Assembly: GCA_965228475.1 (NCBI GenBank)
Contig: OZ245817.1
Location: 3,072,001 to 3,136,000 of the forward strand
DNA from: Myxococcota bacterium
GTDB taxonomy: Bacteria; Myxococcota_A; UBA9160; JAFDDA01
Direction: 5' to 3'
Length of the DNA: 64,000 nucleotides
In this document: positions 13,744 through 29,847 of the stretch, one piece after another
Layout: every line of letters begins with the position of its first letter
Numbering within the stretch: the stretch's first letter is position 1
Notes under the pieces: generated by a model
Database searches by the model: none
What the model saw: the letters and a program-made list of their open reading frames with translations, nothing else
What the model was told of the DNA's origin: nothing
Position numbers and translations under genes: made by a program

Positions 13744-15369
13744 CTACCCGAGGTCCCGCACGTTCCGGCCGAGCGCCGCGCCGAACGCGCTGCGCAGGCC
13801 TTCGAACCGGGGGACCCGCGGGTGGGCTTCGATGCGCACCCGCTCGCCCGGCACCAGCCCGGCGCGGTGCCGCACCTCGGCGACGGCCTCGAGCGGCCCG
13901 CCGAGCGCATCGACGAGGCCGTGCTCCTTCGCGCGGTCGCCGCTGTAGACGCGGCCCTGGGCAAGGCGTGCGACCTCTTCCCGCGGGAGGCCGCGGCCTT
14001 CGCTCACGCGGTCGAGGAAGAGGTCGTAGATCGCGCGCATCTCCTCGCGCATGGCGCCGCGTTCGTCGGGCGAGAAGCCGCGGTCCTCGGCATGGATGCC
14101 GGCGCGCGCGCCACGCTCGATGGAATCGCGCCCGACCCCGAGCCGTTCGTAGAGCCCGGAGAGATCGATCTTTCCGCCGACGACGCCGATCGAACCCGTG
14201 ATCGAGGTCGCCTCGGCGAGCACCGCATCGCCCGCGGCGGCCAGGTAGTAGCCCCCCGAAGCCGCCACGTCGCCCAGCGAGACGACGACGGGCTTCTCCT
14301 CGCGGACCCGCATGACCGAGTGCCAGAGGAGATCGGAGGCGAGCGCATCCCCGCCCGGGCTGTCGATGCGCAGGACCACGCCGCGGATCCCCTCGTCGCG
14401 CCGGAGCCGCTCGAAGAGCCCGCGGTAGACGTCGCTCGCGACGCCGCGCAGACCGTGACCCCGGCGGATCGGACCCGTCGCCACCACGTAGGCGATGCGC
14501 GGAAGGTCCGCGAGGAGCGGACGCCAGCCCGGATCCCCCGCCCGCATGGCGTAGTAGCCGGGCGCGTCCACGACGCGCAGGTCCTCGAGCTTCTCCGCCC
14601 CGGGCGAGCGCTCGACGATCTGCTCCTGGAGCTCTTCGGGATAGAGGCAGCCGTCGAGGTAGCCGTCCTCCTTCGCCGTCGCGGCGCGGTGCGGCCCGCG
14701 ATCGATCCAGTCACGAACCTCTTCGGGCTTCTTCCCGCGCCCCGCAGCGACCCCCGCCACGAGCTGGCCGTACCAGTCGTCGAGGAGCGCCTCCATCTGC
14801 TCGCGCTGCTCGGGCGACATGCCCTGGCGCGTGAAGGTCTCGGCCGCGGTCTTGTGGCTCCCGACGCGCAGCACGTCGGGCCGGATGCCGACGCGGTCGA
14901 ACAGGTCGCGCAGGAAGAAGGCGTCCATGCGCAGCCCGACGAGCCCGAGCGAACCCGCTGGCGGCACGAAGAGCTCGGACGCCGCGCTTCCGATGAAGAC
15001 GTCCCCCGCCGAGAGGCTCTCGCCGAAGGCGACCACAGTCTTGCGCGTGGCGGCATCGGCGACGGCCCGCCGCACCGCCAGGGCCCGGCCCCAGCCGATG
15101 GGCGCCCCGTCGAGGCGCAGCAGGATGCCCGTGACGTCCGGATCGCGCGACGCGGCGTCGAGGGTCGTGAGCAGCTCGAGCAGGCTCGGGCCCGGCGGCC
15201 GCCCCATCGGAAGCGCCGGGGCGCGCAGCTCCGTGACCGGCTGTGCCATGCGCACGCGGACCCAGACCGGCCGCTCCCGGGAGAGCACCGCGCGCGCCAC
15301 GCCCCGGCGAGCCAGCCCCGCAAGGTTCGCTCCGAGCCGCCGCACCACCTCCGTGGGTTGGGCACTCAC
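13744..15369 (-). CDS. sppA: Signal peptide peptidase SppA (S49, two-domain type)
   Basis: RIDSPGG, AASGGYY (Ser), TGSIGV, GSHKTAAE (Lys). GTG start at 15369 or 15375. Confidence 0.88.
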   Translation of the reverse strand: MSAQPTEVVRRLGANLAGLARRGVARAVLSRERPVWVRVRMAQPVTELRAPALPMGRPPGPSLLELLTTLDAASRDPDVTGILLRLDGAPIGWGRALAVRRAVADAATRKTVVAFGESLSAGDVFIGSAASELFVPPAGSLGLVGLRMDAFFLRDLFDRVGIRPDVLRVGSHKTAAETFTRQGMSPEQREQMEALLDDWYGQLVAGVAAGRGKKPEEVRDWIDRGPHRAATAKEDGYLDGCLYPEELQEQIVERSPGAEKLEDLRVVDAPGYYAMRAGDPGWRPLLADLPRIAYVVATGPIRRGHGLRGVASDVYRGLFERLRRDEGIRGVVLRIDSPGGDALASDLLWHSVMRVREEKPVVVSLGDVAASGGYYLAAAGDAVLAEATSITGSIGVVGGKIDLSGLYERLGVGRDSIERGARAGIHAEDRGFSPDERGAMREEMRAIYDLFLDRVSEGRGLPREEVARLAQGRVYSGDRAKEHGLVDALGGPLEAVAEVRHRAGLVPGERVRIEAHPRVPRFEGLRSAFGAALGRNVRDLG

Positions 15370-15400
15370 CCGCACTCTCCCTTCGTTGCGCGGGCGTTCA

Positions 15401-17038
15401 TCAGCGGCGCGCCTGCTTCCGGTGGCTCAGGTAATCGACCATCAGGTAGGAGCCGAGCTGGTCCGGGCTCGAGTAGAAGACCCGTCCCCGGTTGATCTGG
15501 GTCATGCGCGCGACGAAGTTCACGAGCTCGGGCGCCGAGTCGAGCATGAAGGTGTTGATGGTGATGCCCTGCGCCGTCACCTTGCGAACTTCCTTCAGGG
15601 TCTCGTCGGCGGCGCGCGGCGAGACGCCGCTCACGCCCATCGGCCACTCGACGCGCAGCTCCGGCCCGACGAAGTAGGCCGTCGGCTGACCGTCGGTGAT
15701 CACCAGGATCTGCGGCGCGGAGCTCGGGTGCCGGGCGATCAGCCGCTGCGCGACGCGCAGGCCGTCCTGGAGGTTCGTGAAGGGGTCGCCCATGTTCCAG
15801 ACGACCTCGGGCAGGCGCGGGATCGGGATCTCCTCGGCGCGCGTGTAGAAGCCGACCACGAAGAAGTGATCGCGCGGGAAGCGGGTGCGGATGAGGTGAT
15901 CCATGGCGAGCGCCACGCGCTTGGCCGCGCCGAAGCGCCCTTCCCACGACATCGACCAGCTCATGTCGAGGAGCAGGACCGTGGTCGCCTGCGTACTGGT
16001 ATCGCGTTCGCGCACCTGGAAGTCGTCGAGGCCGAGCGGGACGGGCAGCGGCTGCGCCTGCCCGGGGTGGGAGAGCGCGTGGCGCTTCACGCCGCCGAGG
16101 ACGGTCTTCACGACGTCGAGGTCGAGCGGGTCGCCGAACTCGAAGGGCCGCGTCTCGTCCGGGCGCGGCAGGGCGACGCCCCGGGTATCGACGTCGTGGG
16201 CGCCCGGCCGCCCCTTGCGCAGCGCGCCATAGACCTCCGCGAGCGCCCCGGCGCCGAGCCGGCGGATGGCGCGCGGCGTGAGCTCGTTCTCCCCTTCCCG
16301 CAGGTAGCCGGCCCGTTCGAGAGAGGGGGACAGGTCGCGCAGCAGGATGAGGGACTCCGCCGCGTCGTCGCCGAGCAGGTCCCGGAGGGTCTCGGCATCG
16401 ATGCCTTCGAAGTTTCCCTGTGCGAGGTCGCGCGCGAGCTGCTCCATGCCCTCGACCCGCTCGCGGATCTCCTGGGCCGTCTCGTAGTCCGCGGCTTCGG
16501 GGCCCTGGAAGCGCTGGCCCTGCTGCTGCTGGAACTGTTCGAGCGCCTTCAGCCGATCGAGCTCCTCGAGGAGCTCCCGGAAGGCGTCGCCGGCCTCTTC
16601 GTCCTCGAAGTCCCAGTCGCGGAACCGCTCGATCGTCTCCGAGACCGGCGGAGCGGCCTCGGCCTCGTGACCGTGGCGCCGGGTCATGAAGTCGTTGTGG
16701 CGCGCGGACTCGTGGCCGCTCGCGCCGCGCACGGCGGTCTGCTCGCGATCGAGGATCTCGTCGAGCTGCTGCTGCAGCTCGTCCGTCGCCTCCCGCAGGT
16801 GGTACTGCTCGGCCAGCGACTCCGCCTCGCGCCGAAGCTCACGCAGGAGGTCCTCGACGCCCATCACGCGCATCTCGCGCCCGGCGAGCTCGAAGCCGTA
16901 CTGGCGCATGAAGTCGAGTGCTTCGCCGAGGGACATGCCCTCCATCAGGAGGTCCGAGACGGCGTCGAGCACCGTGTCGGCATCGAGCGTGAAGCTCTCC
17001 TGGGTGCCATCCCAGCGCTGGTAGCGGTAGACGCGCAT
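15401..17038 (-). CDS. VWA-domain protein (partner of the adjacent AAA+ ATPase)
   Basis: YRYQRWDGTQ N-terminus; MIDAS DMSWS, TNLQDGL, ITDGQP. Confidence 0.88.
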   Translation of the reverse strand: MRVYRYQRWDGTQESFTLDADTVLDAVSDLLMEGMSLGEALDFMRQYGFELAGREMRVMGVEDLLRELRREAESLAEQYHLREATDELQQQLDEILDREQTAVRGASGHESARHNDFMTRRHGHEAEAAPPVSETIERFRDWDFEDEEAGDAFRELLEELDRLKALEQFQQQQGQRFQGPEAADYETAQEIRERVEGMEQLARDLAQGNFEGIDAETLRDLLGDDAAESLILLRDLSPSLERAGYLREGENELTPRAIRRLGAGALAEVYGALRKGRPGAHDVDTRGVALPRPDETRPFEFGDPLDLDVVKTVLGGVKRHALSHPGQAQPLPVPLGLDDFQVRERDTSTQATTVLLLDMSWSMSWEGRFGAAKRVALAMDHLIRTRFPRDHFFVVGFYTRAEEIPIPRLPEVVWNMGDPFTNLQDGLRVAQRLIARHPSSAPQILVITDGQPTAYFVGPELRVEWPMGVSGVSPRAADETLKEVRKVTAQGITINTFMLDSAPELVNFVARMTQINRGRVFYSSPDQLGSYLMVDYLSHRKQARR

Positions 17039-17046
17039 GCCCTGGG

Positions 17047-18456
17047 CTAGCCCTGCCCGTAGCGGACCGTGCCTTCGCGCTCGGTCTTGTTGAGGCGGTT
17101 CGCCAGGTGGAGGCCCTCCAGGATGAACTCGATGGCCGAGGCCAGCCGCGGCGGCGAATCGCCTTCGGCGAGCGAGCGCGCACCCTCGCGCAGGCCCGGG
17201 ATCTCGTCGAGCCCCTCGAGGTACTCCCCCGAAGGCATGGCCTCGGACACCTCGACCCGCCAGCCCTGTTCGAAGGCCTCGACGACCGGCGCCAGGCCCT
17301 CCCCCGCCGCGCGCTCCTCGAAGACGACGTGGATGGCGCGCTTCAGGAGTTCGCCGAGCACCTCGGCTTCGGAGCGCTCGCTGCCGGCGTACTCGAGCTC
17401 GATCTTGCCGGTGGTCGAAGCCTCGAGGGCCGGAAGGTCCGAGATGCGCGGGACCGCCTCGCTCTCCCCGAGCCGCAGGGCCCGACGCGCGGCGTTCGCG
17501 AGCAGGGTCTCGTAGTTCGCGAGGGTCATGCGGACGGAGACGCCCGAGCTCTGGTTCACGTCGGGGCTCCGCCGCGCCTGGTGGGTCAGCTCGACGACGA
17601 TCTCCTCGAGGAAGGGCGGCACGTGGACCTCGACGCCGGGAATCTCCGGCCGGACGGCCTCCTGCCGCACGATGTCGAGCTCGAGCGCGCGCGTCTTCGG
17701 GTAGTGCGTGCGGATCTGGGCCGCGTAGCGGTCCTTGAGCGGCGTGATGATGCGGCCCCGGCTCGTGTAGTCCTCGGGGTTCGCGCTCGCGACGACCAGC
17801 ACGTCGAGAGGCAGGCGGACCTGGTACCCCTTCACCTGGACGTCGCGCTCCTCCATCACGTTGAACATCCCGACCTGGACCTTCTCCGTCAGGTCCGGGA
17901 GCTCGTTGATGCAGAAGATTCCCCGGTGGGTCCTCGGCAGCAGGCCGAAGTGGATCGTGAGCTCGTCGTCGAGGGTCCGGCCCTGGGCGACCTTGATCGG
18001 GTCGACGTCGCCGATCAGGTCCGCGATCGAGACGTCCGGCGTGGCGAGCTTCTCGACGTAGCGCGCGTCACGGTGGACCCAGGCGATGTCGGTCTCCGGC
18101 CCCGCTTCGGCGATGCGGTCGATCGCGTAGCGCGAGACCGGAGCGAAGGGGTCGTCGTGGATCTCGCTGCCGGCAACCTCCGGCACCCACTCGTCGAGCA
18201 GGTCCACGAGCGCGCGGATCATGCGGGACTTCGCCTGGCCGCGTTCGCCCAGGAAGATCACGTCGTGCCCGGCCAGGAGCGCGTTCTCGACGGCGGGGAT
18301 CACGGTGTCGTCGTAGCCGAGCACGCCGGGAAAGAGCGGCTCGCCGGAAGCGAGACGCGCAAGCAGGTTGGCGCGCAGCTCCTCGCGCAGGCTGCGGGTC
18401 CGGTAGCCCGCTTTCTCGAGCTCTCCCAGGGTCTGGTACGGCGGCGGCGACGGCAT
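17047..18456 (-). CDS. MoxR/Mg-chelatase-like AAA+ ATPase
   Basis: GERGQAKS (Walker A variant), INELPDL, ASANPEDYTSRGRIITPLKDR. Confidence 0.88.
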   Translation of the reverse strand: MPSPPPYQTLGELEKAGYRTRSLREELRANLLARLASGEPLFPGVLGYDDTVIPAVENALLAGHDVIFLGERGQAKSRMIRALVDLLDEWVPEVAGSEIHDDPFAPVSRYAIDRIAEAGPETDIAWVHRDARYVEKLATPDVSIADLIGDVDPIKVAQGRTLDDELTIHFGLLPRTHRGIFCINELPDLTEKVQVGMFNVMEERDVQVKGYQVRLPLDVLVVASANPEDYTSRGRIITPLKDRYAAQIRTHYPKTRALELDIVRQEAVRPEIPGVEVHVPPFLEEIVVELTHQARRSPDVNQSSGVSVRMTLANYETLLANAARRALRLGESEAVPRISDLPALEASTTGKIELEYAGSERSEAEVLGELLKRAIHVVFEERAAGEGLAPVVEAFEQGWRVEVSEAMPSGEYLEGLDEIPGLREGARSLAEGDSPPRLASAIEFILEGLHLANRLNKTEREGTVRYGQG

Positions 18457-18511: not shown

Positions 18512-19693
18512 CTAGAGCAGGTCCGAGGCGCCGAGGCCGTGGCGCTGCTTCAGGGTCTTCACGACGTATCGGATGACCGCCTGGACCGAGGCCTCGAAGT
18601 CGTCGTTGTCGATGATGGGAATGTCGTCGGACTCCTCGGCCAGCTCGAGCAGGTGTTCCTGGATCTTGAGGATGGCATCGAGGTTGTCGACGTAGTCGTG
18701 CGGTCCGTGCTTCGGGCCGCGCCGCCGCTTCTTGAAGCGCTTCCCGTAGGACTTCGCGTTCAGGTTCACGACCATGAGCAGCAGGATGTCGGCGCGGTCC
18801 GCATAGTTGGCGCGGCCGACGAGCCCGGGCACCAGGGAGACGCCGTCGAGAACGAGGCTCGTGCTCTCCTGGATGGCCCGGTCGATCAAGCCCCGGACGC
18901 CCACGGCGACCGCCTGGGCCTGATCCCGGAACGCCTCGACCACCGGCTCCTCGTAGGCCTCGGCGCCGGGCACGGACCGCCAGGCGTCGTAGCTCGACGC
19001 GTGCAGCGCCGGGGCCAGCTCCGCGGAGAGCATGATGCGCATGACCTGACGGATGGCGTCGGTCGACATCACGCGCGGGATGCCGAGACGGTGGGCGACC
19101 TCGACGGCCAGGGCCGTCTTGCCCGCGCCGGTCGGCCCGCCGAGCAGGAGGATCACCGGCCGCTCGGGGTCCTGGAACTTCCGCCAGATGAGATACCGCT
19201 CCCCGACCTCTTCCCCGTGCGCCTGGGACAGGGCATCGAAGACCGTCTTGCGAAGCGTCGCGCGATCGATCTCGATCTGCCCCCGCTGCCGCAGGCCGTT
19301 CTCGATCTGCAGGGCGACCGCCGAGGCCTCGGCCGGATCGATCGCCGCGGCGAGCAGCGACTGGGCCAGCACGCCCTTCGAGAACGGGACCTCCGGGTCG
19401 AGATCGGTGATGCGGATCGGGTCGACGAGGGCCGGAGGCGGCGGGGGGAGCCCCTCGGTCAGGGAGCCCTCGACGAGCTCCGCGAGCTCGGCGCGTGAAA
19501 CCGACTCCCGCCCCTTGATCTGGTCCCGCACGGCCTGGGCCGCCGCGAAGGCCTCCTCGTAGGGGACACCCCGTCGTGTCAGGGCGTGGATCATGATCCC
19601 GCGCATGAAGGGGCGCTCGCCGTCGGCGTCCTTGACCACCGGACGGGAGGTGGAACCGCTCTTGCCGGCTCGGCTTTCCTTTTCGCGGGCCAT
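18512..19693 (-). CDS. 2-phosphoglycerate kinase-like P-loop kinase with tandem ATP-cone-like domains
   Basis: Two cone-like starts (RPFMRGIM, VPFSKGVL); GGPTGAGKT, STDAIRQVMR, LHASSYDAW, LDGVSLVPG. Confidence 0.8.
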   Translation of the reverse strand: MAREKESRAGKSGSTSRPVVKDADGERPFMRGIMIHALTRRGVPYEEAFAAAQAVRDQIKGRESVSRAELAELVEGSLTEGLPPPPPALVDPIRITDLDPEVPFSKGVLAQSLLAAAIDPAEASAVALQIENGLRQRGQIEIDRATLRKTVFDALSQAHGEEVGERYLIWRKFQDPERPVILLLGGPTGAGKTALAVEVAHRLGIPRVMSTDAIRQVMRIMLSAELAPALHASSYDAWRSVPGAEAYEEPVVEAFRDQAQAVAVGVRGLIDRAIQESTSLVLDGVSLVPGLVGRANYADRADILLLMVVNLNAKSYGKRFKKRRRGPKHGPHDYVDNLDAILKIQEHLLELAEESDDIPIIDNDDFEASVQAVIRYVVKTLKQRHGLGASDLL

Positions 19694-19838
19694 TTCACCA
19701 CGCTAACCGAGTGACCGGCGCATCGCGAGTTCGGCGCCCGGATCGCAGCGAGTACGGACCGGAGAGGCGCGCTAGCGGTTCGTGCGCGCGTCGCGCCAGG
19801 GGCGAATCCGAACGACACAGGAATTGACCCTTTTTGGG

Positions 19839-19868
19839 TTGACTGATTTGCGAACCAGTCTCTACCGT
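19839..19868 (+). promoter_or_regulatory. Putative promoter with a dyad in the spacer, upstream of the MerR-like gene
   Basis: TTGACT-N18-TACCGT; GACTG...CAGTC inverted repeat at 19841-19860. Confidence 0.45.
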
Positions 19869-19901
19869 TCTGCAACACCGTGGTTACACCGGGGGGTGAT
19901 C

Positions 19902-20405
19902 GTGGCCGCGGACCATCGAAGTGGAGCGGTGGCGACACCGGACCACGTTGGACCCGAACATCAGCCGTCGCCCGCCGCGCAGCGGGCCCGGGAGCACTTT
20001 CGCAGCAGCGAGGCCGCCTCCCTGCTCGGACTTTCCCGCCGTCAGCTCCTGTATTGGGCGCAGACGGGTCTCGTCCGCCCCTCGCACACGACGCCGGGCG
20101 GGCACCTGCGATACGGCTTCCGGGACCTCGTCGCCCTGAAGGCGGCCAAACGGCTGATCGACGCCGGCATCTCCGTGCAGCGGATCCGTTCGAGCCTGCG
20201 CGCGCTCGAGCTCGCGCTTCCGCACGTCCGATCGCCCCTCGCCGAGCTCGTCCTGGTCGCCACGGGCGACGTCGTGCTCGCCATCCATCGCGGCGAGGCC
20301 TTCGAGGCGCTCTCGGGCCAGGAATGGGTCCTCGACGTCGCAGAGTTCCAGCGCGAATTCGACCACTGGCGGGCGAGCCACGCGGCCGAGCGCTCGTGCA
20401 ACTGA
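19902..20405 (+). CDS. MerR family transcriptional regulator (Rv1830-like subtype)
   Basis: FRSSEAASLLGLSRRQLLYWAQTGLVRPS...LRYGFRDLVALKAAKRLIDAGISVQRIR; start uncertain (GTG 19902 after GGGGGG). Confidence 0.85.
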   Translation: MAADHRSGAVATPDHVGPEHQPSPAAQRAREHFRSSEAASLLGLSRRQLLYWAQTGLVRPSHTTPGGHLRYGFRDLVALKAAKRLIDAGISVQRIRSSLRALELALPHVRSPLAELVLVATGDVVLAIHRGEAFEALSGQEWVLDVAEFQREFDHWRASHAAERSCN

Positions 20406-20440
20406 CTTCGGCACCAGAAGCGGGACCGGAGGAGACGGCC

Positions 20441-21529
20441 ATGCGAACCATCGCGATCATGAACCAGAAAGGCGGCTGCGGGAAGACGACCACCACCGTG
20501 AACCTGGCGGGCTGCCTCGCCGCGGACGGCGAACGCGTGCTCGTGATCGACATGGACCCGCAGGCCCACGCCACCCTGGCCCTCGGCGTGGACCCGGATG
20601 CCGTCGACGAGAACCTCTTCGACGTGCTGGTGGACGCCGAGGGCGGCGAGCCGCTCGAGCGCGTGCTGCTCGAGGTCGCGCCCCGGATCGACCTCGCCCC
20701 TTCCGGGATCGTGCTCTCGGCCCTCGAGCAGAAGCTCGTCGCCGACAACGCCGAATCGCGGACGGAGCGCCTCGCGAACGCGCTGTTCGGCCTCGAGGAT
20801 CGCTACGACTACGTCCTCGTCGACTGCCCGCCGAACGTCGGGCTGCTGACGTTCAACGCCCTGCGCGCCGCCGGCGAAGTGATCATCCCGCTCGAGACGA
20901 GCTTCTTCGCCATCCAGGGCGTGCAGAAGCTCCTCGAGACGATCGGCCTGCTCTCGGACCGGATCGCCCACGACCTCTCGGTGCGGATCCTCCCGACCCT
21001 CTTCGACGGCCGGACGCGCTACGCGCGCGAGACGCTCGCCGAGATCCGGGAGCTCTTCAAGGAGCTGTGCTTCGACACCGTGATCCGCCAGAACGTGAAG
21101 CTGCGCGAGGCGGCTCGGCGCGGCACGCCGATCATCCAGTTCGCGCGCACCGCCAACGGCGCGCTCGACTACGCCTCCCTCGCCATGGAGCTCGCGGCCG
21201 AGGCGCCGGCCCTCGACGCTCCGGCGGATGCCCAGAACGCCGCCGCCGAGGCCGGAGAGCCCCGCGAGGTCGTGATCCAGTTCCGCGACGACGCGGCCAG
21301 CGACGTCCGCATCGCCGGCGACTTCAACGGCTGGGTCCCCGACAAGGGCGTCGTCTCCCGCACCGAGGAGCAGGGCCGGCAGCGCGTCTGGACGAAGACG
21401 CTGGCCCTGCCGCCGGGCACCTACCAGTACCGCTACGTGGTCGACGGCGACTGGTGCGAGGACCCCGAGAACCCGGAGAAGTCCCCGGGCCGGGTCGGTG
21501 AGCGCAACTCCGTGCTCGTGGTCCGCTGA
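20441..21529 (+). CDS. ParA/Soj family ATPase fused to a C-terminal glycogen-binding (CBM48/AMPK-beta-like) domain
   Basis: NQKGGCGKTT deviant Walker A, DMDPQAHAT, DCPP; C-terminus VRIAGDFNGW...WTKTLALPPGTYQYRYVVDGDWCEDPEN...NSVL; GGAG SD. Confidence 0.9.
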   Translation: MRTIAIMNQKGGCGKTTTTVNLAGCLAADGERVLVIDMDPQAHATLALGVDPDAVDENLFDVLVDAEGGEPLERVLLEVAPRIDLAPSGIVLSALEQKLVADNAESRTERLANALFGLEDRYDYVLVDCPPNVGLLTFNALRAAGEVIIPLETSFFAIQGVQKLLETIGLLSDRIAHDLSVRILPTLFDGRTRYARETLAEIRELFKELCFDTVIRQNVKLREAARRGTPIIQFARTANGALDYASLAMELAAEAPALDAPADAQNAAAEAGEPREVVIQFRDDAASDVRIAGDFNGWVPDKGVVSRTEEQGRQRVWTKTLALPPGTYQYRYVVDGDWCEDPENPEKSPGRVGERNSVLVVR

Positions 21530-21537
21530 AGAGAACC

Positions 21538-22356
21538 GTGCCCCGCGACCTCGGCGACGTCCTCCACTACTTCATGCCGGAGATCGAATCGGCGGACGAG
21601 CCGGCGGCCGCGCCGGCGCGGCGCGCGCCGGGCGCCGGGCGTGGCGCGGGAACGGACCCGGCCGGCGCGCTCGGGCTCGTCGGCGTCCCGCTCGGGCATC
21701 GGGACGTGCTGCGCGCCACCTTCGTCTGGAACCTCGCGGTCGAAACCACCGCCCAGGGTGCCCCGACCACCGTCGTGGTTCCGGCGCGCATGTCGCCGCC
21801 GGTCTGGCCGGAGCCCGGGCGAACGCCCATGGGCGCGGAGATCCTGCCGGTCTTCGCCGAGGGGCTCGCGGAGTTGACCCAGGCCGCCCTCGACGTGGCC
21901 GCCACGCGCGCCGCCGAGGTCGCGCCGGAAGCCCTCGTGCTCGTGTGCATCCCGCCCTCCTGGCTCGCCAAGGCAGCCGACGGTGCGGCGCTGCTCCGCC
22001 AGGTCCTGCTCTTCTCCTCGCCCGAATCCGCGGACATCATCGAGACCTACGCCCTGGCCAAGCACCTGCTCACGGCGGCGCCCGAGGCGCGGGTCGGGGT
22101 CACGGTCTTCGGCGTGCAATCCGTCGCCGCCGCGGCGCGGACCTTCGACCAGCTCACCCAGACCGCCCAGCGCCACCTCGGCTGCGACCTCACGAGCTAC
22201 GGCCTCCTGATCGACGAACTCCAGATCTACCGGGCGATCGTCGATCGGCGGCCGATCGGGATCTCCCAGCCCCAGTCCCGCGCGGCCCGAAGCTTGCGGG
22301 ACGTGGCACGCCTTCTCCTCGACGACGTCACCGCCCTGGTCGATGACGCCCCCTGA
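21538..22356 (+). CDS. Degenerate MinD/FlhG-like protein lacking Walker A
   Basis: PESADIIETYALAKHL and YGLLIDELQIYRAIVDRRPIG..PQSRAARSLRDVA resemble the FlhG/MinD C-half; the P-loop position reads VPLGHRDVLRATFVWNLA. Confidence 0.65.
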   Translation: MPRDLGDVLHYFMPEIESADEPAAAPARRAPGAGRGAGTDPAGALGLVGVPLGHRDVLRATFVWNLAVETTAQGAPTTVVVPARMSPPVWPEPGRTPMGAEILPVFAEGLAELTQAALDVAATRAAEVAPEALVLVCIPPSWLAKAADGAALLRQVLLFSSPESADIIETYALAKHLLTAAPEARVGVTVFGVQSVAAAARTFDQLTQTAQRHLGCDLTSYGLLIDELQIYRAIVDRRPIGISQPQSRAARSLRDVARLLLDDVTALVDDAP

Positions 22357-22398
22357 ATGCTCGACGGCGCCGATGCAATGCTCGATGATCCACGGTGA

Positions 22399-23040
22399 AT
22401 GAGCGACTTCACCTGGACCGAGCCGCCGCCCCGCAAGGAGCTCCTGGCCGGCCTGCGGGCCGAGATCAGCCGGCTGCCGGGCTCCCTGCGCGTGGTCGCC
22501 GAGAACCTGCTCGGCGCCGACGCCCGGATCGACTGGCTCGCGGCGGACGCCGACGGCCGCGTCCACGTCGTCCTCGTCTCGACCGACGCCGATGACCTCG
22601 CCCTCGTCACACTCGGTCTCGCCCAGCGCGCCTGGGTCGAGGCGCGGCTGCCGGACTGGGCCCAGCTCGCCCCGCAGCAGGGACTGCGCAGCGAGGATGG
22701 CGTCCGCCTCGTCCTGCTGGCGCCGGACTTCTCGGCGACGGCGGAGGCCGCGGTCCGGGCGGTGGGCGAAGAAGACGTCGACCTCGTGCGCTACCGCTGC
22801 GTGCGATCCGGGCCACCGGGTGGCCCCACGGGGGTCGTGATCGAGCCGAGCGGGCGCCGGGAAGAGCGGGCACGGCCGGGCCCCGTGGCCGCCCCAGCCG
22901 CCGATTCCCGTTTCCGGACGGGCCTCTCCGATGCAGACCTGCTCGTGTCGACCGCTGAGCGCCGGGCCCTCGAAATCGAGGCCGAAGTCCCCGAGGGGAC
23001 CGAGCGGACGAAAAAAGTCACCGCCGGTGACAAACTTTGA
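22399..23040 (+). CDS. Hypothetical protein, weak NucS/PD-(D/E)XK-fold resemblance
   Basis: RIDWLAADADGRVHVVLV resembles the NucS-type IDLLAxDxxGxLVVIELK but lacks ExK; in line with flanking genes. Confidence 0.55.
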   Translation: MSDFTWTEPPPRKELLAGLRAEISRLPGSLRVVAENLLGADARIDWLAADADGRVHVVLVSTDADDLALVTLGLAQRAWVEARLPDWAQLAPQQGLRSEDGVRLVLLAPDFSATAEAAVRAVGEEDVDLVRYRCVRSGPPGGPTGVVIEPSGRREERARPGPVAAPAADSRFRTGLSDADLLVSTAERRALEIEAEVPEGTERTKKVTAGDKL

Positions 23041-23154
23041 CACCACCCGCCCCCTGCCAGCCACTTCAAGGTCGAGGGGGTGAGGGTCCGGTCCGGGAAG
23101 GGCCGGAGCCGGCTCGGGAGGCTTCGCCGAACGAGCTTATCTGGGAAGGTGCCG

Positions 23155-23751
23155 ATGGCTGCTCCGCAACCTGTTGTCTCTGTTTCTCCGCAACCGACCG
23201 TCCTGCAGGAAGACCCGGACCGCGAACTCGTCCGCCGCGTGATCGCTGGCGACGAGGCGGCGTTCCAGATCTTGTACGACCGCTATTTCCCGCGCGTCTA
23301 CGACTTCGTCCAGCGCCGCTTACGCAACCGCGCGGACGCCGAAGAGACGGTCCAGGAGGTCTTCATCAACCTGCTGGGCTCGATCGAATCGTTCCGCGGC
23401 GAAGCGCCCTTCGGCGCCTGGGTGTTCGGCGTGACCCGCCGCACCGTGGCGAGCCGCTTCAAGCGCAAGCAGCACACGATGGTGCCGCTCGCGGACGACG
23501 ACACGTCCGAGCCGGTCCACCACGGCGCACCCCAGGCCGTGGGCCCGCACGAGGCGTACGAATGCCAGGAACGCCTGGACCGCCTCGCCGAGACCGCCAT
23601 GAACGATCTCACCGCCGACCAGCGCGAGCTGTTCCGGCTCCATCACCTGCAGCACCACTCGATCCAGAACATCGCGCGGTTGCTGAACAAGAGTGAGGAT
23701 GCGGTGAAGTCGAATCTCTACCGGGCGCGCAAGGTTCTACTCGCTCGCTAG
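23155..23751 (+). CDS. ECF RNA polymerase sigma factor
   Basis: AFQILYDRY, DAEETVQEVF, FGAWVFGV, region 4 SIQNIARLLNKSEDAVKSNLYRARK. Confidence 0.92.
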   Translation: MAAPQPVVSVSPQPTVLQEDPDRELVRRVIAGDEAAFQILYDRYFPRVYDFVQRRLRNRADAEETVQEVFINLLGSIESFRGEAPFGAWVFGVTRRTVASRFKRKQHTMVPLADDDTSEPVHHGAPQAVGPHEAYECQERLDRLAETAMNDLTADQRELFRLHHLQHHSIQNIARLLNKSEDAVKSNLYRARKVLLAR

Positions 23752-23770
23752 CCCGCTCTTGCGGGGGGCC

Positions 23771-23890
23771 GCGCGGGAGGCCGAGGTTGCCTCCGGCTCA
23801 TGGCTCGCCCTGGCGGGCTGCCGGGATGTCTGGACATCCGAGTGCGGGCTGCGCTTTTACTTCGCCGGAGGCAACCTCGGCCTCCCGCGC
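23771..23890. repeat. Structured dispersed element, copy 1 (perfect 27-bp terminal inverted repeat)
   Basis: GCGCGGGAGGCCGAGGTTGCCTCCGGC (23771-23797) pairs with 23864-23890; inner motifs shared with 53491-53611. Confidence 0.85.
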
Positions 23891-23933
23891 TCCTCGGCGG
23901 CTCGCGGGCCAGTGGGCTCGCTATTGTGGTTGG

Positions 23934-24671
23934 ATGGGCACCGAGTACGACTGTTCCGCGTCCTTTAGGCGATGGGCTCGCGACGAGGGCGAGCCGCTCG
24001 CGCTGCGGCGTCGGGAAGCGGGCGACGCGGCAGGGGCCTTCCACTACGAGTTCACTTCGCGGGGCGACCGTGTGGCCGCTCGGCTCGAGGGGGCGGCGGC
24101 GGGACGGCCGCTCGCGGTGGTGCTGACGGCGGACGCGGAAGGCGTTCCGGCCCTCGGAGGCGTCGCGGTCGCGACGCTCGCCCTCCCCCTCCACGGGAAC
24201 CGGCACCATCCGAAGTGGAGCGCGCGCCTCGCCGGGCTGCTGCGGGACGGCGCGGAAGGCGCCCTCGACCGCGGCCTCGTCGAGGAGTTCCTGCGCCAGG
24301 CGGTCTGCGACGTCCAGACGCTGCTGCACGTCTGCGGCCAGGAGGCGGACGTCGACCTCTCGAAGACCCTTCTGCTCGGCCACGGTCCCGGAGCCTTGGC
24401 GGCCGCCGCCGTGCGCGCGGCGACGCCGGGCGTGCTCGCCACGGCACTCGCGCCGGGGGAGCTCGCGTCCGACCTCGACCCGGCCGCCGCGCTGGAAGCG
24501 CCCGGGAGCCCGTGCACGGTCCTCGGCGAGGGGCGCGGCCCGGCCTGGGCCGGCCGGCTCGACCAGGCAGTGCTCCCGCTGGCGCCCGATGGGCCGCTCG
24601 CCGGCCTGCTTCAGGCCGCGCTGTCTGAGGCGGCGGTACCGGCCGGCGACTCCGGTGGGAGCTGCGGGTAG
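23934..24671 (+). CDS. Degenerate alpha/beta-hydrolase-fold protein
   Basis: FTSRGDRV, LPLHGNR, QAVCDVQTLL; the nucleophile elbow reads GHGPG rather than GxSxG. TATTGT 6 nt before ATG. Confidence 0.6.
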   Translation: MGTEYDCSASFRRWARDEGEPLALRRREAGDAAGAFHYEFTSRGDRVAARLEGAAAGRPLAVVLTADAEGVPALGGVAVATLALPLHGNRHHPKWSARLAGLLRDGAEGALDRGLVEEFLRQAVCDVQTLLHVCGQEADVDLSKTLLLGHGPGALAAAAVRAATPGVLATALAPGELASDLDPAAALEAPGSPCTVLGEGRGPAWAGRLDQAVLPLAPDGPLAGLLQAALSEAAVPAGDSGGSCG

Positions 24672-25489
24672 CGCAGCGCGAGCAGCGTGCCCGAAACGAC
24701 GAGCGCGGGCATCGCCAGGAAGTTGAGCCCCGGAACGAGCAGCGTCGCGAAGGCGCCGACCCCGAAGCCGAGCATGGCAAGCCGGTGCCCGAGGATCCAA
24801 CGACGCTTCTCCCGGAAACGCACGCGGCGCCGGTCGAGGGTGTAGCTCGCGTAGTCGAGGGGCAGGAAGAGCACCGTGAGCGCCACCATCACGAAGGGCG
24901 CCACGAGCTGGCCGCCCGGAATGAGGAAGCCGAGCGTCGCGACGATGGCCTGGAGCAGCAGGAAGAAGAACAGGCGGCGAAGCTCCTCGCTCATGGCGCG
25001 GCCGCCTTCCCGCAGCAGGGCGCCGAAGCCCGACTCCTGGATCTCCTCCACGCGGCCGGCGATCAGGGCTTCGACCCGTTTGGAGAGCGCGTCGAGGAAC
25101 GGCGAGGAGACGACGTTCGCGACGAGGAACGCGGCCACCAGGGCCAGACCCGAGAGCGCGGCCGTCAGCACGATGCCGAGCACGAAGAAGAGGGCACGCC
25201 CGGGGCCGACCCAGAGCCACTGGTACCAGGCGTTCGCCTCGAGGGCGGGCAGACCCGAGAGCACCCAGCCGTGGATCTCGCCGAGGTAGGCGACGAGGAA
25301 GACGCCCGTCGTCCCGCACAGGAAGAGCGCGATCAGGAACGGGATCAGGGCGAGCTTCCAGAGCGAGGTCTCGCGCCGCAGCAAGCGCAGGCCCTCGACG
25401 TGCACGGACAGGCCGTCGACGGCGTGGGCCAGGTTCCGGCCCGGCGGCGGCGCCTGGGGGCGCGACGGCGGGGAGCCGGGCGAACTCAC
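24611..25489 (-). CDS. EI24/CysZ-like membrane protein
   Basis: Several hydrophobic helices; ANVVSSPFLDALSKRVE, LDYASYTLDRR, LVPGLNFLAMPALVVSGT; GTGA overlap with the pmm stop. Confidence 0.85.
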   Translation of the reverse strand: MSSPGSPPSRPQAPPPGRNLAHAVDGLSVHVEGLRLLRRETSLWKLALIPFLIALFLCGTTGVFLVAYLGEIHGWVLSGLPALEANAWYQWLWVGPGRALFFVLGIVLTAALSGLALVAAFLVANVVSSPFLDALSKRVEALIAGRVEEIQESGFGALLREGGRAMSEELRRLFFFLLLQAIVATLGFLIPGGQLVAPFVMVALTVLFLPLDYASYTLDRRRVRFREKRRWILGHRLAMLGFGVGAFATLLVPGLNFLAMPALVVSGTLLALRYPQLPPESPAGTAASDSAA

Positions 25490-27196: not shown

Positions 27197-28696
27197 CTAG
27201 GAACCGACGCGCTCGATGCGGAACCGCGCCGGCGCGCCCGTGCCCGGGTTGCGCTCGAGCACCGCATCGAACCCGCGGCGTTCGCCCGGGGGAAGCGGCG
27301 CCGCGGCGGTCTCGGCCGCAGCCTGCTCCTGGCGACGCGTCAGGGCACCCACCGGAAGCTCTCGAAGATCCGCCTCCGAGAGGGAGGGCCCGGCGATGGC
27401 CGGCCGGGAGATCACCTGGCCCGCTTCGTCGAGCAGGACGACCCGCAGCCGGCCCGCTGCAGCGGCGGCCTCGCCTCCCCCTGGAACGAGCTCCCCGGAG
27501 ACCACGAACAGCGTGCCGGAACGAGCGTTGTCGATGAAGCGTCCGCGGACGTTCTCCGCGCGCATGCCCTCCCAGGAGGCGCTTCCGGCGGGCGCCGGCG
27601 GCGCAGCGGGTTCGACCTGGACGCTCCCGTGGAGGACGGCGAGCAATGCCACCGCCGGCGCGATCCAGCCGACGTTCTGCCAGAGCCCGGAGCGGGCCCG
27701 CGGCGAGACCGAGACCGGGGCCTCCGGAGGCGTGGTCCCGACGTCGGGCCAGTCCGGGTCGGGGCGTTCGCCGTCGCCCGCGTCGTCGTCGTCGTCGTCG
27801 TCGTCCAGGTCGAAGCCATCGAAGGTGGCTTCGCCGTAGGCGTCGAGCCCTTCGCCGTCGATGTCGGCGACGGGCGGCTCGCTCGGCGCGGGAGCCTCCT
27901 GCGGTGCGGCGTCGTCCGCGGGCGCGGCGGGCTCGGCCTCGAGGGCGGCGGGCGAGGTCATTCCGGGCGGATGCGCGGCTTCGGGCTCGTCGAGCTCGAG
28001 GGGATCGCCGTCACCCCCGTCGTCGGTCATCTCGAACATCGCCGATTCGGCGCCCGCGACGGGGGCGATCGGACGCAAGGTCGTATCGTCGGGCAGCTCG
28101 CTCTCGTCCGGCGCGGGCATCGCGACGGCCGGAGCCGGCTCTTCGGCGGCGGGCGGCTCCTCCGGTTCGTCGGGCAGCGCGTCGAGGGCCGCCTGGGCGG
28201 ACTCCGGCTCGGCCGGGTCCCCGGGCTCCGGCTCGGAAGCGGACGCCGCACCCTCGGGCGCTTCGGCTTCCGGCGCGGTGGAGCGCGAAGCCTTCGAGCT
28301 CCGCTTCGAGTTCCGGTTGGCCTCGACCGCCGCATCGAGCGCCAGGTTGGAATCCCCGAACTCCCAGGGCCCCTCGGCGATGGCCTCGTCCGGGGGCGGA
28401 AGCTCGGGGTCTTCGTCGTCGGCTTCGGGCTCGGGCGGCGCGGCCTCGGCGGAAGCGTCCTCGGCCGGGGCCTCGTTCACGAAGCGCAGCTCGTCGGCCG
28501 TTCCGGGTTGGGTGAGTCCGCCGAGGGTCTGGCCGTCGGCCGTCTCGTCCCCATCGCTCGGGGCGCCGACGGAGCCGTCGGGATTCACGTGGAAGCGGTG
28601 CTGGCAGCGCTTGCAGCGAACCCGTGCACCGCGCGGCGGGATGCGTGCCGCGTCGACCTGGAAGCGCCGCTCGCAGCCTTCGCACGTGATGACCAT
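27197..28696 (-). CDS. MJ0042-type zinc-ribbon protein with acidic linker, TM segment and DUF3426-like C-terminus
   Basis: MVITCEGCERRF...RVRCKRCQHRF; long Asp/Glu/Pro-rich linker; WIAPAVALLAVL; LFVVSGEL..LRVVLLDEAG; GGAGG SD. Confidence 0.8.
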   Translation of the reverse strand: MVITCEGCERRFQVDAARIPPRGARVRCKRCQHRFHVNPDGSVGAPSDGDETADGQTLGGLTQPGTADELRFVNEAPAEDASAEAAPPEPEADDEDPELPPPDEAIAEGPWEFGDSNLALDAAVEANRNSKRSSKASRSTAPEAEAPEGAASASEPEPGDPAEPESAQAALDALPDEPEEPPAAEEPAPAVAMPAPDESELPDDTTLRPIAPVAGAESAMFEMTDDGGDGDPLELDEPEAAHPPGMTSPAALEAEPAAPADDAAPQEAPAPSEPPVADIDGEGLDAYGEATFDGFDLDDDDDDDDAGDGERPDPDWPDVGTTPPEAPVSVSPRARSGLWQNVGWIAPAVALLAVLHGSVQVEPAAPPAPAGSASWEGMRAENVRGRFIDNARSGTLFVVSGELVPGGGEAAAAAGRLRVVLLDEAGQVISRPAIAGPSLSEADLRELPVGALTRRQEQAAAETAAAPLPPGERRGFDAVLERNPGTGAPARFRIERVGS

Positions 28697-28872
28697 TGCG
28701 CCCGCCTCCCCTTCCGGCCCGATCCGTGACGGCACCGTGAAAGCGCGGTGCGGCAGCTCGACGCCGCAAGCGTGCGAGATGCGTGTGCTACCTTGCCTCC
28801 GAACGCGGCGCCGGGTTCTCCCCTCTCTTTTCGGAGTGTGCCGGAGACCGCTTGAGCCACCGCCGGAGCCCC

Positions 28873-29847
28873 GTGGCGAGCCCCCTCCCGAAATCCCTCC
28901 TCGACCGCCGCCTGATCTTCGTGACCGGCAAGGGCGGCACCGGAAAGACCAGCGTCGTCGGCGCCTTGGCCCAGGCGGCTGCGCGCGCGGGAAAGCGCGT
29001 CCTGGTCGCCGAGACCGGCCGCGACGAGGCCGTCTCCCGGCTGCTCGCGCCCGGCGAGCCGGAGGTCGGCTACCGCGGCCGGGAGGTGCAGCCCGGCCTC
29101 TTCGTCCTGCGCGTCGCCCCCTACGAAGCCCTCGCCGAATACATCGGCCTCCAGTTCGGCGTCCGTACGATGACGGACCTCGTCTTCCGCAACACCGCCT
29201 TCCGGCAGCTGATGGACGCGTCCCCCGGATGGCGGGAACTCATCACGCTCGGGAAGATCTGGCACCTGACCCAGGAGGAGGACGCGGAGGGCCGTCCCCG
29301 CCACGAGCTGTTGATCGTGGACGCACCGGCGACGGGCCACGGGATCACCTTCCTCGACGTCCCGCGCGTGGCCGCGGCGGCCGTCCGCGCCGGCCCCCTC
29401 GCGCGGCACGCCGGCTGGGTCGAGGACATGGTGAAGGATCCGGAGCACACGCGGCTCCTGCCCGTCGCGCTGGCCGAAGAACTCCCGGCCCGGGAGACGG
29501 CGGAGCTCGTCGGACGGCTGCAGACGGACGTCGGGGTCACGGTCGACCGCGTCGTGGTGAACGGGATCGCCCGATCGCCCGTTCCGCCCGAGGTGCCGGA
29601 CCTCGCCTCCCGGCTCGACGCCCTCCCCGACGATCTCGAACTCCCGGGCCTCCCGAGCCCGGCCGTGCTCGCGGCCTGCGTGCGGCACGGCGACGCCCGC
29701 GCCGCCCTGAACCGTCACTACGCCGAGGAGATCGAGCGCAGCATCGGTCTTCCCACCGTCGAGCTGCCCTTCCTCGAAGGCGGCATCAGCGGCCCCGACG
29801 ACCTGGCGCTCCTGGCCGAGTCGCTGCTCCCGGAGGGCGCGTCGTGA
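28873..29847 (+). CDS. ArsA/Get3-family ATPase, subunit 1
   Basis: FVTGKGGTGKTS, IVDAPATGH, LAEELPARET. Confidence 0.88.
   Translation: MASPLPKSLLDRRLIFVTGKGGTGKTSVVGALAQAAARAGKRVLVAETGRDEAVSRLLAPGEPEVGYRGREVQPGLFVLRVAPYEALAEYIGLQFGVRTMTDLVFRNTAFRQLMDASPGWRELITLGKIWHLTQEEDAEGRPRHELLIVDAPATGHGITFLDVPRVAAAAVRAGPLARHAGWVEDMVKDPEHTRLLPVALAEELPARETAELVGRLQTDVGVTVDRVVVNGIARSPVPPEVPDLASRLDALPDDLELPGLPSPAVLAACVRHGDARAALNRHYAEEIERSIGLPTVELPFLEGGISGPDDLALLAESLLPEGAS

Follow-up and report, generated by a model that had tools for sequence, protein, structure and literature searches.

The question raised by this locus is what a ParA-type ATPase positions, or senses, when it carries a carbohydrate-binding module (CBM) in the same polypeptide. 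The gene, parA-CBM, lies in a 64,000-nucleotide (nt) stretch of the genome of a Myxococcota bacterium (GCA_965228475.1, contig OZ245817.1, positions 3,072,001 to 3,136,000), which we call the window. An earlier description made from the letters of the window alone, the original prediction, proposed that the ParA-CBM protein may tether or segregate alpha-glucan granules on the nucleoid, or link its activity to carbon stores. Our analysis demonstrated that ParA-CBM is a vertically inherited, syntenic core gene of one bacterial class with a constrained CBM, and that it travels across the whole class together with a second gene, that for a protein called pseudo-ParA here. Our reading, held tentatively and with a chance that we place somewhat below even, is that ParA-CBM serves as the motor of a nucleoid switch of ParA type, which is self-contained, fixed in the chromosome and supplied with its own activator, and that the CBM holds a ligand other than glycogen.

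The ParA-CBM protein and its distribution

The ATG of parA-CBM is preceded by GGAGGAG. The coordinates of the open reading frame (ORF; Table 1), both domains and every motif quoted in the original prediction were present in the translation and the Pfam results: KGGCGKTT (residues 10-17), DPQ (39-41), DCPP (128-131), FDGRTR (188-193), RQNVKL (216-221), AGDFNGW (292-298) and PPGTYQYRYVVDGDW (324-338). The HMMER check proposed with it matched AAA_31, CbiA and AMPK1_CBM, all above cut-off. AAA_31 covered residues 1-180 (E 2.1e-51, 174.8 bits; cut-off 27), and CbiA was matched with E 1.2e-22 (80.7 bits; cut-off 25.4). The solved structures closest to the N-terminal 250 residues were ParA (8ray_B, 3.4e-48), HpSoj (6iub, 1.8e-43) and TtSoj (1wcv, 6.3e-39); matches of the ATPase domain to MinD (1g3q, E 2e-15) and McdA (6noo, E 9e-13) were much weaker. 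In 38 family sequences K10, G11, G12, G14, K15, D37, D39 and D128 were invariant, as were Q41 of D37-M-D39-P-Q41 and D128-C-P-P; D37 and D39 align with D58 and D60 of Myxococcus xanthus ParA. By its Walker A, DxD and Walker B motifs and its profile matches, the protein belongs to the deviant-Walker-A ParA/Soj (SIMIBI) ATPases, and its residues mark it as a Soj-type ATPase with a complete catalytic set, to which an intact AMPK-beta-type CBM is joined.

The original prediction also stated that basic residues are kept at the positions used by Soj for non-specific DNA binding. The lysines in question in HpSoj are K199, K227, K230 and K247 (PMC6393308), which map to R196, Q217, K220 and T237 in ParA-CBM. 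The statement held for two of the four positions (R196 and K220); the other two, Q217 and T237, are not basic but each adjoins an arginine (R216 and R236, respectively). A basic DNA-binding patch on ParA-CBM is plausible from this alignment.

The C-terminal domain was matched by AMPK1_CBM (PF16561) over residues 277-360 (E 3.6e-11, 43.5 bits; cut-off 26.8); the score of CBM_48 (PF02922), 17.5 bits, was under its cut-off of 22.4. Among solved structures the tail resembled AMPK beta CBMs (4y0g, 5.9e-6) and SEX4, and phmmer against the AMPK beta CBM chains gave 4.6e-7. The residues that contact sugar in rat AMPK beta1 are W100, K126, W133, L146 and T148 (PMC2642990). In an alignment to the AMPK beta1 and beta2 CBM chains, the first three correspond to W298, R331 and W338, which were invariant in the 38 family sequences, and the last two to V352 and E354, which varied. 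ParA-CBM is thus like the CBMs of AMPK beta (CBM48 family) and of the SEX4/LSF1 glucan phosphatases in its profile match and in the conserved equivalents of W100, K126 (as R) and W133, and unlike the AMPK beta CBM in the L146 and T148 equivalents, in its fusion to ParA and in its occurrence in a genome without alpha-glucan enzymes. Because W298, R331 and W338 are invariant, the ligand-binding platform appears to have been kept, also in genomes without glucan genes.

Mean pairwise identity among 39 distinct ParA-CBM sequences was 0.694 in the ATPase, 0.193 in the linker and 0.659 in the CBM, and 25 of the 87 CBM columns were invariant. Because the CBM is so much more conserved than the linker, we conclude that it is under constraint. 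Searches with the CBM itself gave no clue to its ligand: only other ParA-CBM proteins were among the best 120 of 983 homologues, and an Atlas look-up returned only stand-alone AMPK1_CBM/CBM48 clusters. No other AMPK1_CBM was found in the window genome.

The distribution of the fusion was examined in a phylum sample of 401 genomes, 78 of which belong to the class (the window genome, 63 others of the same order and 14 of the sister family f11). The full-length fusion was found in 69 of the 78: the window genome, 55 of the order genomes (E 1e-143 or better) and 13 of those from f11 (E 1e-128 or better), the remaining f11 copy, in G292, being truncated at a contig end. The 323 genomes of the sample outside the class contained no full-length orthologue; there only the ParA domain was matched (best E 1.8e-61). 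Five order genomes had no orthologue (G008, G062, G112, G192 and G397), and three had an orthologue without the CBM at the same locus (G242, 282 amino acids (aa), L057; G072, 279 aa, L058; G367, 299 aa, L059). Since the full-length architecture recurs in 69 class genomes and in many 50%-identity representatives, the possibility raised earlier that the fusion is an assembly artefact was ruled out. Two individual copies stood out: G267 had two full-length copies on separate contigs (C75 and C39), and the copy at G147:C18:60091-61158 carries an in-frame TAG.

Synteny was examined by tblastn in twenty 16-kb loci, six of them from family f11. A gene for an ATP-cone/2-phosphoglycerate-kinase-like (2PGK) protein flanked the locus on one side in all 20, and a PGM/PMM gene on the other side in 19. 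Identity to the window protein was 55-72% for ParA-CBM and 50-70% for PGM/PMM; for the two proteins encoded just downstream of ParA-CBM, pseudo-ParA and a pseudo-nuclease, it was 28-51% and 30-51%, respectively. Pseudo-ParA was detected in 15 of the 20 loci, the pseudo-nuclease in 13, a sigma factor of the extracytoplasmic function (ECF) type in 14, as the next gene after the pseudo-nuclease, and a MerR regulator in 11, upstream of parA-CBM, with none in the six f11 loci.

The family extends beyond the class. HMMER against 1.84 billion representatives returned many full-length relatives of 350-400 aa with 36-49% identity, as well as longer forms matched over two stretches. When species genomes were searched with an alignment built from 33 of these proteins, 80 loci were obtained, in Omnitrophota, Planctomycetota, Myxococcota, Desulfobacterota, Nitrospirota, Acidobacteriota, Gemmatimonadota and several candidate phyla.

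The pseudo-ParA partner

The original prediction stated that no parB lies next to parA-CBM. This was correct: Pfam found no ParB domain among the neighbours, and a canonical gidB-parA-parB operon lies at 4.89 Mb in the single contig of this 5.0-Mb genome, about 1.8 Mb from parA-CBM (L002). The dedicated partners encoded downstream had been missed, and parA-CBM is not a lone orphan. A third ParA, an orphan and 38% identical, is encoded at G000:C1:3264733-3265569 (L003), between genes for an electron-transfer flavoprotein (ETF) alpha subunit and an acyltransferase.

Pfam and NCBIfam assigned no family to pseudo-ParA. An AlphaFold2 model built from a 14-sequence alignment had a predicted local distance difference test score (pLDDT) of 84.2 and a predicted template-modelling score (pTM) of 0.81, with residues 1-39 disordered. 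The best Foldseek match was FlhG (4rz3_A, E 4.2e-12, TM 0.65/0.72), followed by MinD, FleN, Soj and ParA 8ray. The P-loop position reads VPxGxRDVVRAA, and GKT was absent from all 14 aligned sequences. Because the model has a ParA/MinD fold and the P-loop lacks GKT, the protein is predicted to be a pseudo-ATPase.

The most conserved stretch of pseudo-ParA in that alignment was its N-terminus, MPRDLxDVLHYFLPE. The ParA-binding motif of M. xanthus ParB has R13 at its centre, surrounded by the hydrophobic residues L11, L15, L18 and I19 (PMC12462528). The spacing of M1-x-R3-x-L5-x-x-V8-L9 in pseudo-ParA is identical to that of L11-x-R13-x-L15-x-x-L18-I19 in ParB, and the window genome's own ParB has the same spacing in ALGRGLGALI. 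In 36 of 39 distinct loci a ParB-like motif was present 10-212 nt 3' of parA-CBM (31 with the strict pattern and 5 with a relaxed one); these include f11 loci in which tblastn barely detects the rest of pseudo-ParA. As a background, of the 16,330 ORFs in the window genome with 100 aa or more, 15 have the pattern at residue 1. Among the multi-phylum loci, a PRDLxDVLHYF partner was found downstream only in those of Myxococcota type (6 of 56 loci with enough flank).

The residues that form the ParB pocket in M. xanthus ParA were mapped onto ParA-CBM through the structure-chain alignment. L150 corresponds to V133 and L155 to F138 (both hydrophobic and at least 90% conserved), L187 to L170 (hydrophobic and invariant), L192 to I175 (hydrophobic), and L152 to L135, which is hydrophobic in the window protein and less than 90% conserved in the family. 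Four of the five mapped residues (V133, F138, L170 and I175) stay hydrophobic. Y81-E82 corresponds to F60-D61 in the window protein and to Y-E in the family consensus. From the motif and the pocket together we infer that pseudo-ParA is a cognate activator or adaptor of ParA-CBM.

Glucan genes in the host genomes

The proposal to be weighed here is that ATP-bound ParA sits on DNA while the CBM holds glycogen, so that alpha-glucan granules are tethered or partitioned. The retained equivalents of W100, K126 and W133 speak for it. However, the window genome (G000; one contig, 96% complete) contained no GlgA (best E 9.9e-10), GlgB or GlgC (25.6 bits) above cut-off and no GT35 phosphorylase, GH77 or GT3 synthase. 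It has one GH13 that resembles a cytoplasmic alpha-glucosidase.

A single weak, partial GH57-like match (31-33 bits) in a protein of about 780 aa was not accepted as a glucan enzyme, because its gene lies in a flagellin-glycosylation island. This island (G000:C1:1730000-1749500, L063) contains genes for flagellin, FliD, FliS, PseB- and PseC-like proteins, a Maf/MptE-like protein, a cytidylyltransferase and NeuB, and suggests that this Myxococcota-like lineage has a flagellated member.

Across the 78 class genomes, GlgA was above cut-off in 12, GlgB in 25 and GH13 in 43, and GH57 reached E 1e-50 or better in 7. Fusion and glucan genes were cross-tabulated by hand; most of the relatives are metagenome-assembled genomes (MAGs). 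GlgA, GlgB or a strong GH57 was present in 28 of the 69 fusion genomes and none of the three in the other 41, a result that goes against the granule role in this lineage. The original prediction had named a general lack of glucan synthesis in fusion genomes as a finding that would refute it, and for this lineage that is what was observed. GH13 was also missing, together with these three, from 28 fusion genomes, among them G051 (2 contigs), G197 (3 contigs) and G302 (10 contigs). Although 21 of the 69 fusion genomes have GlgB, it is no commoner there than in genomes without the fusion (4 of 8), and it was present in two of the three genomes with CBM-less orthologues. The CBM was thus lost in GlgB-positive genomes and conserved in genomes without glucan genes.

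In other phyla the picture was different. Of 50 genomes with the fusion, 42 had GH57 (41 of 49 if the unpublished G414 is set aside), and in 7 of the 80 loci a GH57 gene was located roughly 1 kb upstream of it. A Pfam scan of the first 83 of 195 neighbouring ORFs of at least 400 aa, from 25 of the 50 loci, identified GH57+BE_C in L074 (4.7 kb downstream), GH15 in L065 and GHL15 in L069; the remaining neighbours in the scan were unrelated housekeeping genes. We conclude that part of the family does have a genuine connection to alpha-glucan, which this branch does not share.

What stands of the granule proposal, therefore, is the intact ATPase, a plausible basic patch, the CBM platform and the GH57 genes near some fusions elsewhere; what does not stand is the host, which lacks the glycogen genes. 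A glycogen-granule role is unlikely in this organism, and granule tethering as an account of this gene is very improbable. The label of glycogen-granule partitioning should not be carried over to this lineage.

The operon, alternative roles and a proposed mechanism

Six genes on the same strand form the operon: merR, parA-CBM, and the genes for pseudo-ParA, the pseudo-nuclease, the ECF sigma factor and an alpha/beta-hydrolase-like ORF (Table 1). From merR through the sigma-factor gene, adjacent genes are separated by 8-42 nt.

Table 1 Positions of the operon genes and of the ParA-CBM domains in the window
Feature	Coordinates	Strand	Remarks
ParA-CBM ORF	20441..21529	+	362 aa; ATG at 20441, stop ends 21529
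ParA/Soj ATPase domain, residues 1-255	20441..21205	+	deviant Walker A KGGCGKT, D37-x-D39, Walker B D128
Ala/Pro-rich variable linker, residues 256-275	21206..21265	+	mean pairwise identity 0.193, invariant columns 0/20
AMPK-beta-type CBM, residues 276-362, plus stop codon	21266..21529	+	Pfam AMPK1_CBM
Pseudo-ParA, 272 aa	21538..22356	+	N-terminal MPRDLxDVLHYF, disordered linker, ParA/MinD-fold domain without Walker A (predicted)
Pseudo-nuclease, 213 aa	22399..23040	+	NucS/EndoMS-like PD-(D/E)xK fold (predicted) without conserved ExK; variable linker; C-terminal FRTGLxDxDL
MerR-family helix-turn-helix (HTH) regulator, first gene of the operon	19896..20405	+	Pfam MerR_1 E 9.7e-15; start uncertain
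ECF-type sigma-70 factor	23080..23751	+	Pfam Sigma70_r2 and r4_2; NCBIfam sigma70-ECF 97.9 bits; start uncertain
Alpha/beta-hydrolase-like ORF, end of the operon	23937..24671	+	tblastn matches in 16/20 loci

The open frame of merR runs from 19782 to 20405, with conservation starting at about residue 63, and NCBIfam gave only weak HspR/CarH/BldC-like HTH matches. A scan of 19500-24900 called no promoter-like sites and two terminator-like sites, as against 1.7 expected. The divergent intergenic region upstream of merR contains an AT-richer stretch (19820-19850) with two TTGAC(C/T) words, in which the consensus scan called no promoter.

No Pfam or NCBIfam family was assigned to the pseudo-nuclease. 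Its AlphaFold2 (AF2) model (pLDDT 81.6) was matched by Foldseek to EndoMS (5gke_A, 1.5e-4), NucS (2vld) and the Shedu nuclease domain (8ti9). In 12 aligned sequences D45 was the only invariant residue among the candidate catalytic positions, and there was no conserved ExK. After a variable linker the protein ends in the conserved FRTGLxDxDL, which does not match the ParB motif spacing. NucS proteins carry a C-terminal peptide that binds the clamp, and by analogy FRTGLxDxDL may be a docking peptide for some partner.

The alpha/beta-hydrolase-like ORF likewise had no Pfam or NCBIfam family; the Atlas pointed to AXE1/DLH (alpha/beta hydrolases of the acetyl-xylan-esterase/dienelactone-hydrolase type; score 0.94), which we treat as a lead only. 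Its nucleophile elbow is GHGPG in the window, with Gly at the nucleophile position, as against GFSLG in 5 of 11 orthologues, and for this reason the window copy may be a third pseudo-enzyme.

Upstream, on the opposite strand, are the ATP-cone/2PGK-like gene and genes for a MoxR-like AAA protein, a VWA protein and an S49 peptidase; downstream are a CysZ-like gene and genes for PGM/PMM, a zinc-ribbon protein and a BagB/ArsA-like ATPase. The S49 peptidase, VWA and MoxR-like AAA genes form a block at 13744-18456 (-), of which tblastn detected AAA in 12 and VWA in 11 of the 20 loci. A MoxR-vWA system is mentioned, in another context, in a preprint considered below (10.64898/2026.10.19.760177). The protein encoded at 27861-31049 (+) has 1062 aa, with the BagB/ArsA/Get3-type ATPase in its C-terminal 390 residues and no family for the approximately 670 N-terminal ones. 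Beside it lies the zinc-ribbon gene at 27197-28735 (-); many relatives show the two genes in synteny with the ParA-CBM locus.

Because the operon holds a MerR regulator and an ECF sigma factor without a recognisable anti-sigma gene, it could be read as a ligand-gated switch. The CBM would sense a soluble sugar, such as an imported malto-oligosaccharide or another alpha-glucoside, and ParA-CBM and pseudo-ParA would relay the signal to transcription through MerR and the ECF factor, in the way that FleN and FlhG act on FleQ. The best structural matches of pseudo-ParA, FlhG and FleN, are regulators, and the one GH13 gene of the genome, for a cytoplasmic-looking alpha-glucosidase-like protein, also speaks for this account. 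The CBM of AMPK, which is a regulatory glycogen sensor and not only a tether (PMC2642990), provides a precedent. This account is nevertheless unlikely in our judgment. In the six f11 loci, all of which have ParA-CBM, tblastn found no MerR, ECF factor or pseudo-nuclease, and the regulators therefore lie outside the conserved core, while the pseudo-ParA motif is retained in four of the six. GH13 itself is confined to little more than half of the class, and 28 of the 69 fusion genomes have neither GH13 nor GlgA, GlgB or a strong GH57.

The architecture has been described before. A bioRxiv preprint of 22 October 2026 (10.64898/2026.10.19.760177) reports, from computation, a 'ParA-CBM' system of clade ConB5, the second variant of which has a ParA with a C-terminal AMPK1_CBM followed by an inactive second ParA and a protein of inactive restriction-endonuclease (REase) fold; each of these we confirmed independently. 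The passages of the preprint on this system propose a role in immunity and make no mention of a ParB-like N-terminal peptide, of MerR or ECF genes, or of the absence of glycogen genes. A search of the literature on ParA, glycogen and positioning found no experimental study of the family. The earlier remark that no characterised system is like this one thus holds for experiment but not for the architecture. New here are the class-wide core gene, the conserved CBM, the absence of glycogen genes and the ParB-type motif on pseudo-ParA.

An immune or conflict system of the kind proposed would use the CBM as a lectin that detects a carbohydrate of infection, upon which ParA multimerisation would contain the invader; the inactive nuclease fold might sense DNA. 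Besides the exact match of architecture with the preprint, the resemblance of the pseudo-nuclease model to the Shedu defence nuclease domain fits this account, as does the faster evolution of the partners than of the ATPase. The preprint (10.64898/2026.10.19.760177) describes the distribution as sporadic and the CBM as rapidly diverging. In this class, within which our comparison was made, the system is instead near-universal and sits at one syntenic housekeeping locus, and the CBM evolves scarcely faster than the ATPase. PADLOC matched no component of a known anti-phage system among the six operon proteins, giving only local P-loop/HTH matches of 13.7-26.8 bits; between 13.7 and 31 kb, Pfam identified neither mobile-element nor defence genes in the neighbourhood; and the system has no effector domain. 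Immunity is thus decidedly unlikely as the role of these genes, and the label of immune sensor fits poorly with a conserved, syntenic core gene.

A division role like that of PomXYZ or MinCDE was considered and found no support: the window genome has no MinD above cut-off and, to our knowledge, the partners of ParA-CBM share no domains with PomX or PomY.

We return to the nucleoid switch with its own activator. The anatomy, folds, motifs, distribution, synteny and gene inventory were observed; binding to DNA, docking of the peptide, stimulation of the ATPase and all that is said of the ligand are our inferences. The ATP-bound ParA domain would form a sandwich dimer and bind nucleoid DNA non-specifically through R196, K220 and the neighbouring arginines. 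The N-terminal peptide of pseudo-ParA would insert into a hydrophobic groove at the edge of the dimer, and its docking would trigger hydrolysis of ATP and release, so that the pattern on the nucleoid would be a dynamic one. Attached through its flexible linker, the CBM would carry a ligand or cargo on the ATPase itself. Because the CBM is part of the ATPase, the cargo would ride on the motor and not on the activator, as MinC does on MinD. The ligand would here not be endogenous glycogen; most likely it would be a different carbohydrate, or a protein that engages the same aromatic platform. The genes for MerR, the ECF sigma factor and the pseudo-nuclease are order-level additions, which probably serve regulation or offer extra docking sites.

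The system resembles several known ones in part. Like ParABS (M. xanthus ParA-ParB, 8ray; PMC12462528), which contains the closest solved relative of the ATPase, it keeps the pocket hydrophobics, and its partner bears an N-terminal Phi-x-R-x-L-x-x-Phi-Phi motif on a disordered tail. Unlike ParABS, it lacks an adjacent ParB, a parS-binding or CTPase domain and an N-terminal extension; its partner is a P-loop-less ParA paralogue, its ATPase itself carries the cargo-type domain, and the true parAB is elsewhere in the genome. With McdA/McdB and other orphan ParA cargo systems it shares an adjacent, fast-evolving and partly disordered partner and, presumably, action on the nucleoid; the relation to McdA is distant, however, and in McdAB it is the partner that binds the cargo, whereas the binding module here belongs to the ATPase. 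The predicted fold of pseudo-ParA is closest to those of FlhG, MinD and FleN, and the proposed topology, in which the ATPase holds a passenger and the activator is a separate component, resembles that of MinD, MinE and MinC. In contrast to those systems, no membrane-targeting helix is evident, and the active ATPase is Soj-like, not MinD-like.

Several observations weigh against the proposed switch. Three lineages dropped the CBM yet retained the operon: L057 and L058 keep MerR, pseudo-ParA, the pseudo-nuclease and the ECF factor, and in L059, where the contig is short, only MerR and the ECF factor were detected by tblastn. The CBM must therefore be dispensable for at least part of the function, and these orthologues amount to a natural CBM-deletion experiment. 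Comparison of the pseudo-ParA profile with the ParA-CBM family alignment was not significant (E 0.059), nor was that of its alignment with P0002 (E 0.15), so that the tie between the two proteins comes from the predicted fold. Docking of the peptide in the pocket is suggested by a nine-residue motif and by conserved pocket hydrophobicity. The motif was not found in three of the 39 distinct loci (L026, L045 and L049), and the orthologue L027 has Q in place of the motif R/K. The site that receives the ParB arginine also differs, D110, V116 and E117 of M. xanthus ParA corresponding to V91, Q97 and K98 in ParA-CBM. The absence of glycogen genes from MAGs can reflect incompleteness; this weakens single absences but not the overall pattern. 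G000 (1 contig), G051 and G197 also lack them. Finally, the W/R/W platform is an alpha-glucan site in AMPK, and all characterised relatives known to us bind alpha-glucans.

A more specific form of the proposal is that this is a housekeeping ParA machine of new design, in which the activator is a P-loop-less paralogue with an acquired ParB-type peptide and the CBM on the motor binds something other than storage glucan; we regard this form as rather doubtful. ATPases of the ParA/MinD group organise chromosomes, carboxysomes, chemoreceptor arrays and division sites, and each new type of cargo or activator has broadened that picture. Distinctive here are the cargo-type domain on the ATPase and a likely activator that would be a dead paralogue with a ParB-like peptide. 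Whether the genes encode a positioning machine, a metabolic sensor or a defence system would follow from what the CBM binds in a glycogen-free host. If the proposal is true, these bacteria would have a new nucleoid positioning or sugar-sensing system, and with it a repurposed alpha-glucan module.

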